A stretch of DNA of 64,000 nt from Escherichia coli (GTDB lineage: Bacteria; Pseudomonadota; Gammaproteobacteria; Enterobacterales; Enterobacteriaceae). Position numbers: made by a program. The DNA lies in the NCBI RefSeq assembly GCF_051903065.1, contig NZ_CP178438.1, one strand, 5' to 3'. Below, piece after piece: positions 60,601-63,600 of this stretch (the first letter of the stretch is position 1; every line of letters starts with the position of its first letter).

Positions 60601-63600
60601 TGAAGCTGTAAGAAAGTTGGTTAACAGGGTAATCATCAACGGTTCGCTGTAACCTAACTGGCTGATTTTTACCGCCGAAATCATTGCGGTATAAGCCGAT
60701 ATGCCCGGGAACATAGGGATAACGGCCGCCACGGTAAACACTTTCGGATGCGCCAGATACCAGCGCGACCATTGAATACCAATGGTGCCGACCAGCATAG
60801 AAGCCATAAAGGTTGACCACTCAATATTCAACCCGCTGGTCATCAAGATCATTCGGGAACCATGACCTATCGAGCCAAGCAGCGCACACCAGCGTAACGC
60901 CCGCACGGGAACGTTGAACACCATCGCAAAGCCGACCGCAGGAATGGCGGCGAGGATCATATCCTGCGCCAATGCAAACAGAAATTCGATCACACCCATC
61001 CGCGTAGCCCCCAAATCGTCAGTGCCATCACCACGCCGACGCAGGTAGCCAGTGTCAGCAGACTGGCGATCGCCCAGCGTGCCAGTCCGGTATTGATGTG
61101 GCCTTTAAACATATCGGCGACGGCATTAATCAACGGAAAGCCCGGCACCAGCAGCAGAACGCTGGCGGCCATCGCAATGGTGGGGGTATTGCTGAAAGTG
61201 GGGAGTTGCAAAAGCAATCCGGAAATGGTGGTGGCGGCGAAAGCGGTAAGGCAAAAGTTGATCTGTGGATGAAGATGACGTTGTGCCAGCAGCTGGCGGA
61301 TATACATCGCGGTCGTACTGGCAAAGAAGGTGATGACGGCACCATCCCAGCCACCGTTATTGAGTTTACAGAAACAGGCGCAAGAAAGGCCAACCATTAA
61401 GGCTACCAGCCATCTTGGGTAACGTAATGGCTGAATTTGGCTAAATCGTTTCTCTACGCCTTTGTAATCCAGCAGATGATGCTCCGCAAGAATCACAATG
61501 TGCTGGACTTCAGTCACCACATGCATATTAATGCCGCGATCGTGATTTTTACGTGTCGATGTCAGGCATTGCCCATCTTTAATAGTTGTCAGCACTATGG
61601 CGTTCGAAGAGATAGAACTTTCGACACTGTCCATTCCCAGCGCCCGACCCAGTCGTGAGGAAAGCTCATCAACCAACGCGCTTTCCGCACCATGTTGCAA
61701 AAGAAATAATCCACACTGGATACAAAGCCGTGTTACGGCTCGCTGTTGCTCAGTTTGCATAACTCGCCCTTTGTCATAGACGTGCTGCGTATTGTTCAGA
61801 TAATGAGAATCCATTTGTATCATGAAGCACGGTTGTTTTGCGGTAGGTTAAGATCAAAATTGCGCTGATTAATCCTGGTTATTGGGACAAGCTCGGTGAT
61901 AAAAAGCGAATTATCTCTCGCCGCAAACAAACTATCACATGAATATTATCACTATAATGAATTTATTGTTTAGCCTTTACGGGTCAGGATAATAGATAGC
62001 TGGGCGCGTTTTTTAGTGTTAACAAGTTAAAATCATCAGATTTTATTGAATAAATATTGATTGTGTGATTCCCGCATTCTGCGGGAAGAGATATCATTTA
62101 ATTATAAATTAAATGAATGAGATTTCTGTTTTTCATTAAGTATTTCTAACAACTTAATGTAGATATTTTAAATGTCTCCAGGCTATTTCACCAGGTTATC
62201 ATTTGATGCTAACCTTCTGACACATGCAGTGGAGTTGTTGTGCAGCAGGAGTATGCTGATATGAAAGTGAATGCTAAGGATAATTTATTCGCTTAATCTA
62301 TTAATTTGCTGGAAACATTTAAGGAATGAATATCCTGAATAAACCATCATAATTTTTAGACAGTGGATGTGGAGGAAATATGTTGCCAGGATGCTGCAAA
62401 AATGGAATTGTTATCAGTAAAATACCTGTTATGCAAGCAGGGTTAAAAGAGGTCATGAGGACTCACTTCCCTGAATATGAAATAATATCCAGCGCCTCTG
62501 CGGAGGACCTTACCTTATTACAATTACGTCGTTCCGGATTAGTCATTGCTGATTTAGCCGGTGAAAGTGAAGATCCACGTTCTGTTTGTGAACATTATTA
62601 TTCTTTAATCTCACAATATCGGGAAATTCACTGGGTTTTCATGGTGTCACGTTCCTGGTATTCCCAGGCAGTAGAATTGCTCATGTGCCCTACGGCGACG
62701 TTATTGTCTGATGTTGAACCCATTGAGAATCTGGTCAAGACCGTACGTTCCGGCAATACGCACGCAGAGCGTATCAGCGCCATGCTGACCTCCCCGGCAA
62801 TGACTGAAACTCATGATTTTAGCTATCGCTCCGTCATTCTCACTCTTTCAGAGCGCAAGGTACTGCGGCTATTAGGTAAAGGATGGGGCATCAACCAGAT
62901 AGCTTCATTGCTTAAGAAAAGTAATAAAACTATCAGCGCCCAAAAAAACAGTGCGATGCGTCGACTGGCAATTCACAGCAACGCTGAAATGTATGCATGG
63001 ATAAATAGCGCGCAGGGTGCAAGAGAACTTAACTTGCCTTCTGTTTATGGAGATGCCGCAGAATGGAACACAGCCGAATTAAGAAGAGAAATGTCGCACT
63101 CATAGAAAAATGCGTCATGAGTAGTATCGGTATTGAGAGTTTATTCAGAAAGTTTGCGGGCAACCCTTATAAGCTCCATACCTATACCAGTCAGGAGTCA
63201 TTTCAGGATGCCATGTCGCGGATCTCGTTTGCGGCGGTCATTTTTTCTTTTTCTGCCATGAGAAGTGAGCGCAGAGAGGGATTATCTTGCCTGACTGAAC
63301 TGGCGATTAAGTTTCCGCGTACCCGGCGTTTAGTTATTGCGGATGATGATATTGAAGCTCGGCTGATTGGTTCATTGTCGCCATCACCGCTGGACGGTGT
63401 ATTAAGTAAAGCGTCAACGCTGGAGATTTTTCATCAGGAACTCTTTTTGTCATTAAATGGTGTACGTCAGGCGACCGACCGACTGAACAATCAGTGGTAC
63501 ATTAACCAAAGCCGGACGCTAAGCCCGACGGAGAGAGAAATATTGCGCTTTATGTCACGTGGCTACTCAATGACACAAATTGCCGAGCAGCTTAAACGCA

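Follow-up and report, generated by a model that had tools for sequence, protein, structure and literature searches.

The AT-rich spacer between yjjP and yjjQ in Escherichia coli O157:H7: very probably a divergent control region orthologous to that of K-12

The control region between yjjP and yjjQ-bglJ is already known, and was described for E. coli K-12 in 2008 (Stratmann, Madhusudan and Schnetz 2008). H-NS represses yjjQ-bglJ and LeuO activates it (PMC5025477, PMC3950696; both cite Stratmann 2008). A site for the RpoS holoenzyme has been placed in the same spacer (PMC5493296). In the mouse gut, IS insertions in the yjjP–yjjQ spacer are adaptive; expression of yjjP was ~2-fold higher aerobically in the single IS-insertion clone examined, whose genome had two further mutations (PMC5094792).

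We compared the corresponding interval of E. coli O157:H7 with this region. The two are orthologous and have the same flanking genes: the gene order dnaC-dnaT-yjjB-yjjP<>yjjQ-bglJ-fhuF is common to O157:H7 and K-12, the annotated neighbours, yjjP on the minus strand and yjjQ on the plus strand, match the O157:H7, BW25113 and MG1655 records, and the orthology of yjjP, yjjQ and bglJ was also checked by tblastn of YjjP, YjjQ and BglJ. The comparison with K-12, which the original prediction had named as its own check, gave 97.2% identity over the 751 bp of positions 61700-62450, and the identity of the same segment to E. coli O157:H7 was 100%. Of 5426 complete E. coli genomes, 5400 carry the spacer at ≥80% coverage, and in 66% of 5420 E. 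coli genomes the identity to the present allele is only 90-95%. The view that this is the H-NS-silenced, LeuO-activated promoter region of yjjQ-bglJ is supported by the orthologous position and by the literature (PMC5025477, PMC3950696, PMC3946193). The genes and the spacer between them are as follows.

60990-61760, minus strand: yjjP coding sequence, 256 aa, ThrE family, 'putative succinate exporter'; start codon at 61760-61758 (PGAP and curated MG1655 annotation).
61761-62379, no strand assigned: yjjP–yjjQ non-coding divergent control region, 619 bp, G+C 0.342 (annotation and composition).
62380-63740, plus strand: yjjQ-bglJ operon, with yjjQ at 62380-63105 and bglJ at 63063-63740 (43-nt overlap), followed by fhuF.

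The spacer had been predicted as ~556 bp of AT-rich non-coding DNA at 61824-62379. Its place, its non-coding nature and its AT-richness were confirmed: the G+C content of 61824-62379 is 0.336 (66% A+T) relative to a mean of 0.50 in the window (the whole 64-kb stretch of DNA analyzed), the lowest value in a 200-bp profile is 0.29, and only 1.7% of all 556-bp segments scanned across the 64 kb have equal or lower G+C. The length was not, because the spacer is 63 bp longer. The longest yjjP ORF (277 aa) opens with the ATG at 61823, 21 codons upstream of the annotated start. Frameshifts interrupt this 21-codon extension in Escherichia sp. E1V33 and E. albertii, two of the seven Escherichia lineages compared, and together with the curated annotation they argue that ATG 61823 is not the start of yjjP; with the start at 61760, the spacer measures 619 bp rather than 556 bp. 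Stratmann et al. reportedly gave 555 bp for the K-12 spacer in 2008, a figure that corresponds to the long-ORF definition of yjjP, as used in the original prediction. In a repeat search of the spacer, only short, low-identity AT-rich pairs came up, and neither REP nor IS elements nor tandem repeats were found. The curated MG1655 record has no annotated feature in the spacer.

Conservation is unevenly distributed along the spacer. When ~80 Enterobacteriaceae species were compared, discrete conserved footprints were seen to flank a fast-evolving segment.

61883-62145, no strand assigned: fast-evolving centre, 263 bp (strain differences and failure of cross-genus alignment).

All 21 of the differences between O157 and K-12 in 61700-62450 (substitutions or indels) fall within this centre, where the two strains differ by 8%, so that regulatory details could differ between strains. 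Among the differences is a perfect hairpin, CCCGCATTCTGCGGG (62071-62085), that is specific to O157. Identity to K-12 is 100% in the yjjQ-proximal 234 bp and in the yjjP-proximal 122 bp.

A long AT-rich spacer whose centre evolves fast within E. coli and is unalignable between genera might be what is left of a gene that was lost or had been acquired horizontally, and might itself play no part in regulation; in Pseudocitrobacter a pobA-like gene is indeed inserted between yjjP and yjjQ. We regard such an origin as very unlikely, however. A search for the pobA-like protein in the spacer of E. coli gave no remnant (E = 8.3). In ~50 Enterobacteriaceae species the yjjP–yjjQ spacer has remained long (387-709 bp) and AT-rich (G+C 0.32-0.44) despite the sequence turnover, suggesting selection on length and composition. 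Discrete motifs are found at fixed distances from both start codons, and binding of H-NS, LeuO, MarA and RNA polymerase is documented (PMC3946193, PMC5684230, PMC5493296, PMC5025477).

On the yjjP side of the spacer, three elements were delimited.

61814-61822, minus strand: extended -10-like element (TGnTAnAA), TGATACAAA, identified by alignment and spacing; putative promoter element.
61851-61857, minus strand: TTGATCT upstream of yjjP, at ~-50 to -44 relative to the predicted transcription start; invariant in the alignment.
61939-61951, no strand assigned: Escherichia-invariant block ATGAATATTATCA (alignment of seven Escherichia lineages, promoter scan and half-site search).

All 53 species loci carry TTGATC between 75 and 103 nt ahead of the yjjP ATG, when 2.9 occurrences were expected in shuffles. 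From its first base to TGnTAnAA the distance is 35 nt in 42 loci and 34 nt in 4 (46 of the 53 species loci), and the two motifs make up a rigid TTGATC-N29-TGnTAnAA unit upstream of yjjP. We infer that TGATACAAA belongs to the core promoter of yjjP and that transcription would begin near 61807; this conserved element shares nucleotides with the 'ATG' at 61823-61821. TTGATC was also considered as an FNR half-site and rejected, since the second half-site is not conserved. The block ATGAATATTATCA is a candidate LeuO site and/or a candidate second yjjP promoter, with the LeuO half-site TGAATAT at 61940-61946 and GATAAT on the minus strand at 61945-61950.

The same block bears on the possibility of a structured RNA in the spacer, be it an sRNA, a cis-antisense RNA or a leader of the riboswitch type, to which we assign a very low probability. 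RNAalifold applied to seven Escherichia sequences predicted a consensus hairpin on the minus strand at ~61927-61973 (-5.7 kcal/mol vs. ~-0.3 kcal/mol for column shuffles), with some G-U/A-U changes and one double change, and a terminator-like hairpin lies on the minus strand at 61922-61905. The consensus hairpin, however, is an AT-rich imperfect palindrome whose invariant loop and stem hold the -10-like GATAAT and the LeuO half-site, it is absent outside Escherichia, and its z-score is inflated because the shuffled energies are near zero. This sole RNAalifold signal, with ATGAATATTATCA as its core, would fit a DNA site rather than an RNA. The terminator-like site is weak, is not conserved in the cryptic clades, and has a chance expectation of 0.5 occurrences. 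An Rfam 15 scan of 61400-62800 at a permissive E-value returned chance-level matches only, the best being a eukaryotic lncRNA model (E = 0.83, 23 bits vs. a gathering score of 65). In sliding windows on the plus strand, RNAalifold gave no signal (all z > -1.4), and in single-sequence folding the putative 5′ UTRs folded no better than shuffles (z of -0.02 and +0.07). A structured RNA in the interval, the discovery of which would have spoken against the original prediction, was not found by Rfam, RNAalifold or single-sequence folding.

On the yjjQ side, the elements are the following.

62137-62149, no strand assigned: dyad 1, TAAGTATTTCTAA (pattern T[T/A]AG-N5-CTAA, T-N11-A form).
62159-62171, no strand assigned: dyad 2, GTAGATATTTTAA, 22 bp after dyad 1.
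62195-62209, minus strand: MarA binding site (marbox), gcatcaaatgataac, an exact match to the published site.
62256-62284, plus strand: sigma-70 promoter-like CTGATA-17-GATAAT for yjjQ-bglJ (consensus scan; predicted start near 62291).
62315-62333, no strand assigned: LeuO-core-like palindrome ACATTTA-AGGAA-TGAATAT, with 2 mismatches in 14 positions to the LeuO core.
62371-62375, plus strand: Shine-Dalgarno sequence GGAGG of yjjQ (cross-genus alignment).

The dyad pair sits ~215-240 bp upstream of the yjjQ start codon. With up to one mismatch allowed, 51 of the 79 species loci have a dyad copy 170-260 nt ahead of the yjjQ ATG, compared with 5.3 ± 2.1 in shuffles. In other Escherichia lineages, Citrobacter and Salmonella, dyad 2 has the form TTAG-N5-TTAA. 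The pair was considered as a LeuO site and rejected, as it bears no likeness to the core that we re-derived for LeuO from the cas and leuO spacers. The dyads also resemble RcsAB or BglJ-RcsB half-sites (TTc-AA, wwTTCykA), with a register and spacing that fit inconsistently between K-12 and O157. The reported targets of YjjQ are flhDC, ompC and gfc; a search of the upstream regions of these three in K-12 with the dyad pattern T[T/A]AG-N5-CTAA (up to one mismatch) gave no match.

Closer to yjjQ, the promoter predicted at 62256-62284 is the one given in the RpoD SELEX table, which lists the hexamers CTGATA-17-GATAAT for yjjQ-bglJ and flags the spacer as an H-NS site (PMC3946193). GGAG(G), the short spacer and the ATG of yjjQ are invariant across genera.

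A further reading, that an unrecognized gene for a small protein or a regulatory leader peptide lies in the spacer, has hardly any probability left. The best candidate is an 11-codon frame (MKVNAKDNLFA, 62261-62296), which is preceded by AGGAG (62247-62251) 9 nt before the ATG at 62261 and stays open in O157, K-12, Escherichia sp. MOD1 and E. albertii; ORFs of 30-45 aa also exist on both strands of the spacer. In three Escherichia lineages (E1V33, SCPM-O-B-8794 and E. whittamii), however, a 1-nt deletion reduces the frame to 'MK*' while the surrounding nucleotides are conserved, as expected of a DNA-level element, and the segment overlaps the CTGATA-17-GATAAT promoter, whose block is kept across Escherichia even where the frame is broken. 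Of the four ORFs of at least 30 aa, three are broken by frameshifts or interruptions in two or more of the seven lineages and the fourth in one, and none of the four has an NCBIfam match. The MG1655 RefSeq record, which includes curated small proteins, annotates none in the spacer. A conserved coding frame, which would likewise have counted against the original prediction, was not seen among the six frames tested: a frameshift or stop interrupts each of them in one or more of the seven Escherichia lineages, and five are lost in at least two. Their conserved stretches show nucleotide-level conservation without synonymous change.

Motifs of the regulators of the region can be placed on the O157 sequence. 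The high-affinity H-NS motif is tCGATAAATT, as Lang et al. are said to have reported in 2007. The spacer contains 4 H-NS-motif-like sites vs. 1.5 expected in composition-matched shuffles, a marginal excess (p ∼0.06), and their density is 6.5 per kb in the spacer vs. 1.6 per kb in the window. H-NS binding and repression of both promoters in O157 would follow by analogy from the K-12 literature. For LeuO, we re-derived the 19-bp core ATATTCA-N5-TGAATAT from the K-12 cas and leuO spacers, following PMC6698644. The site at 62315-62333 is one of only two in the 64 kb with up to two mismatches to this core, and 0.18 sites with up to three mismatches are expected in the shuffled spacer; it lies downstream of the predicted yjjQ promoter. 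A MarA ChIP-seq peak was reported in the yjjP–yjjQ spacer of ETEC H10407, where the predicted site bound purified MarA in the highest affinity class (PMC5684230). The sequence gcatcaaatgataac is identical to the H10407 marbox and its block is conserved in Escherichia. By analogy with ETEC H10407, in which binding was shown, MarA would be a ligand of the region as well, beyond the H-NS/LeuO account.

These data suggest that (i) with high probability, yjjP(-yjjB) and yjjQ-bglJ of E. coli O157:H7 are divergently controlled from the interval, which is orthologous to the K-12 region and encodes no Escherichia-conserved protein or structured RNA; and (ii) two ancient, family-wide cis elements, the dyad pair and the TTGATC-N29-TGnTAnAA unit, might lie beneath the H-NS/LeuO layer without assigned regulators in the accessible literature, a proposal that we put forward tentatively from sequence comparison and hold to be rather doubtful. 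The statement that no new element is evident thus stands as to a conserved gene or structured RNA, but the family-wide conserved motifs fall outside the H-NS/LeuO description.

On the basis of the literature, H-NS, together with StpA, would coat the AT-rich DNA and keep both transcription units off under laboratory conditions, LeuO, a LysR-type regulator, would bind within the region and relieve the silencing of yjjQ-bglJ, and MarA would bind it too. The layout suggested by the alignments comprises a yjjP-proximal promoter module (61814-61857), an Escherichia-invariant block with a LeuO half-site (61939-61951) and a fast-evolving centre (61883-62145) that is probably mainly an AT-rich platform for H-NS binding. 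The strongly conserved yjjQ-proximal 245 bp would hold the dyad pair, the marbox, the sigma-70 promoter, the LeuO-core-like palindrome and the ribosome-binding site.

Candidates for binding the dyads are YjjQ or BglJ-RcsB, in autoregulation, or another HTH dimer or tetramer, and the yjjP unit could be bound by an activator specific to the succinate exporter YjjPB. Both motifs may already be covered by the footprints of Stratmann et al. 2008. Were both elements to bind specific factors, a physiological signal input to the 'cryptic' yjjQ-bglJ switch and to the exporter would have been missed. Both yjjQ-bglJ and YjjPB are silent in the laboratory and are recurrent adaptive IS targets in the mouse gut, and the two conserved motifs could guide experiments on what induces them naturally. 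The analysis accounts for the long non-coding stretch and adds little to the knowledge of the region; it is modestly useful in correcting the spacer boundary and in placing the published MarA, RpoD and LeuO motifs on the O157 sequence.

The region can finally be compared with other LeuO-controlled loci. The cas and leuO spacers carry the high-affinity 19-bp LeuO palindrome, whereas the yjjP–yjjQ spacer has only a copy with two mismatches and isolated half-sites. The control regions of leuO, bgl and cas (CRISPR-Cascade) are, likewise, AT-rich and intergenic, off in the laboratory, activated by LeuO and targets of IS insertions that relieve or alter expression (PMC5025477, PMC6698644, PMC2646131, PMC5094792). 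Like the yjjP–yjjQ spacer, the leuL–leuO spacer is a MarA ChIP-seq target (PMC5684230).

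In E. coli O157:H7 chromosomes the surroundings of the yjjP-yjjQ spacer are matched at 100% identity, and in K-12 at 97.2%; the segment is present in 5400 of 5426 complete E. coli genomes. In the matching records it is flanked by dnaC, dnaT, yjjB and yjjP on the − strand, and by yjjQ, bglJ and then fhuF on the + strand, with the first base of yjjQ at window position 62380. The G+C content of 61824-62379 is 0.336 (0.50 for the whole window). Among 556-bp windows across the 64 kb, no more than 1.7% have so low a value, and a 200-bp profile reaches its minimum (0.29) around the spacer. 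The AT-rich non-coding stretch is thus genuine rather than a chance fluctuation. The original prediction of an AT-rich gap of about 556 bp thus stands for its composition, and its left edge requires a 63-bp correction. Its reading as a K-12-type H-NS/LeuO control region of yjjQ-bglJ is supported, with the K-12 identity in agreement, and the spacer is an already known, ordinary feature. Elsewhere in the window, G+C over 556 bp falls below 0.40 at 15360-17794, 30173-31447, 1-572 and 1336-1733 (minimum 0.30 near 17500); these stretches are possibly further H-NS-type AT-rich islands.

The left boundary depends on the yjjP start. The ATG at 61823 opens the longest yjjP ORF (277 aa), and PGAP and the curated MG1655 record place the start 21 codons further downstream, at 61760 (256 aa). 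When seven Escherichia lineages were aligned, Escherichia sp. E1V33 and E. albertii showed a frameshift in the 21-codon extension (61761-61823), and the bases around 61823 are part of a non-coding motif conserved in 53 species. The extension was not kept as coding; the true start is 61760, and the spacer is therefore 619 bp long (61761-62379). Stratmann et al. in 2008 are said to have given 555 bp for K-12, a length that matches the old long-ORF annotation of yjjP.

A conserved coding frame and a structured RNA, the two findings named at the outset as speaking against a plain regulatory spacer, were both looked for and neither was found. All four ORFs of at least 30 aa carry a frameshift or a stop in one or more of the seven lineages (three of the ORFs in two or more), and they had no match in NCBIfam. 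An 11-codon frame preceded by a good AGGAG (62261-62296) is also broken in at least one lineage, and where peptide segments seem conserved the underlying nucleotides are invariant. The MG1655 RefSeq record annotates no feature inside the spacer, and the best Rfam match had E = 0.83. Folding of the putative 5′ UTRs showed no gain over shuffled sequence (z = -0.02 for yjjQ and +0.07 for yjjP), and a sliding RNAalifold scan gave no signal on the + strand. The sole − strand signal is an AT-rich imperfect palindrome at ∼61927-61973, whose invariant core ATGAATATTATCA (61939-61951) holds a -10-like GATAAT and the LeuO half-site TGAATAT and is restricted to Escherichia. On these grounds the palindrome was read as a DNA site, and not as an RNA structure.

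The yjjP-spacer-yjjQ-bglJ synteny was found in about 50 of 80 Enterobacteriaceae species loci. In all of these the spacer is long, at 387-709 bp, and rich in A+T (G+C 0.32-0.44 vs. 0.50-0.61 in yjjP), and its sequence conservation across species is patchy. Between 61700 and 62450, O157 differs from K-12 at 21 places, every one of them inside 61883-62145. For this central 263 bp, 66% of complete E. coli genomes are just 90-95% identical to the O157 allele, whereas 88% are ≥99% identical over the yjjQ-proximal 234 bp (62146-62379). The spacer centre thus changes fast in sequence but keeps its length and AT content, as would fit a platform for H-NS binding. The promoter-proximal parts are strongly constrained. 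Within the variable centre, O157 carries a perfect hairpin at 62071-62085 (CCCGCATTCTGCGGG) that K-12 lacks (TT-TTGCATTCTGCGGG).

Short elements located in the spacer region:
61857-61852, − strand, TTGATC
61822-61814, − strand, TGnTAnAA element, conserved family-wide
62137-62149, dyad 1, TAAGTATTTCTAA, within block 62135-62175
62159-62171, dyad 2, GTAGATATTTTAA, 22 bp from dyad 1
62195-62209, − strand, marbox gcatcaaatgataac, an exact match to the reported site

On the yjjP side the conserved part is a TTGATC-N29-TGnTAnAA unit. TTGATC is found upstream of the gene in 53 of 53 loci (2.9 expected by chance), and the distance from its first base to TGnTAnAA is exactly 35 nt in 42 loci and 34 nt in 4. 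The "ATG" at 61823-61821 contributes the TG of this apparent extended -10 element. We infer that 61814-61822 is a candidate extended -10 of yjjP, with a start near 61807, and TTGATC a candidate binding site for a regulatory factor.

The conserved parts on the yjjQ side are the Shine-Dalgarno region and block 62135-62175. A copy of T[T/A]AG-N5-CTAA (≤1 mismatch), a pattern derived from the same sequences in which it was counted, is present 170-260 nt ahead of the yjjQ ATG in 51 of 79 loci (at least 10 genera; 5.3 ± 2.1 in shuffles). The dyads do not resemble the LeuO core and were rejected as LeuO sites. The upstream regions of flhDC, ompC and gfc, which are reported to be YjjQ targets, contain no such dyad. 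The dyads show a resemblance to RcsB-type half-sites and to the SlyA consensus, with different spacing. The pair would represent candidate binding sites for one or more regulatory factors. The footprints of the 2008 study may already cover both the dyad pair and the yjjP-side unit.

A 19-bp palindromic LeuO core is reported to be common to the cas and leuO regions (PMC6698644). Its sequence was re-derived here from the MG1655 cas (ATATTCA-TACTG-TGAATAT) and leuO (ATATTGA-TTTGG-TGAATAT) spacers. A copy with mismatches at 2 of 14 positions lies at 62315-62333, one of just two such sites in 64 kb; in the shuffled spacer, the expected number of sites with ≤3 mismatches is 0.18. Together with the half-site in block 61939-61951, these LeuO-like sequences are consistent with LeuO binding, and do not prove it.

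Several relatives show changes in the flanking genes. In K-12 BW25113, yjjP carries a nonsense change (W117*; 1791-2561 of its locus), and the annotation treats it as a pseudogene; the record of MG1655 in RefSeq, compared by annotation, lists it as "putative succinate exporter YjjP" with no such flag. E. albertii NBRC 107761 has a large internal yjjP deletion (∼1680-1900 of its locus; match limited to residues 204-256) and keeps the spacer and yjjQ. In three Pseudocitrobacter loci (L030-L032, 955-2145) a gene for a 396-aa pobA-like flavin monooxygenase lies between yjjP and yjjQ, in a spacer of 1.83 kb with G+C 0.49. O157:H7 TR01 has an internal stop (S193*) in bglJ (3864-4541 of its locus). 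In the window bglJ is intact (63063-63740), T218A being the sole difference from K-12 BglJ, and it overlaps yjjQ by 43 nt in a different frame (63063-63105), suggesting that the two genes of the operon are translationally coupled.

According to two reports from the laboratory of the 2008 study, H-NS represses and LeuO activates yjjQ-bglJ, which with leuO forms a potential double-positive loop kept off by H-NS under laboratory conditions (PMC5025477, PMC3950696). In genomic SELEX the spacer was listed among the sites of the RpoD holoenzyme, with an H-NS flag and the yjjQ promoter CTGATA-17-GATAAT (PMC3946193). This maps to 62256-62284, a candidate yjjQ promoter with a start near 62291. The spacer was also selected by the RpoS holoenzyme (PMC5493296). 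In ETEC H10407, MarA ChIP-seq gave a peak in the spacer, purified MarA bound it in the highest affinity class, and the marbox reported is gcatcaaatgataac; the leuL-leuO spacer is likewise MarA-bound (PMC5684230). MarA thus contacts the LeuO/BglJ circuit on both of its arms. In the mouse gut, IS insertions in the spacer are recurrent adaptive mutations, and yjjP expression was ∼2-fold higher aerobically in the single IS clone assayed, which carried two further mutations (PMC5094792, PMC7064181). In the natural isolate E. coli 203740 (L083, 4062-5077), IS1 stands in place of the entire spacer together with the 5′ portion of yjjQ, with bglJ intact, an arrangement reminiscent of the laboratory insertions that make bglJ constitutive.
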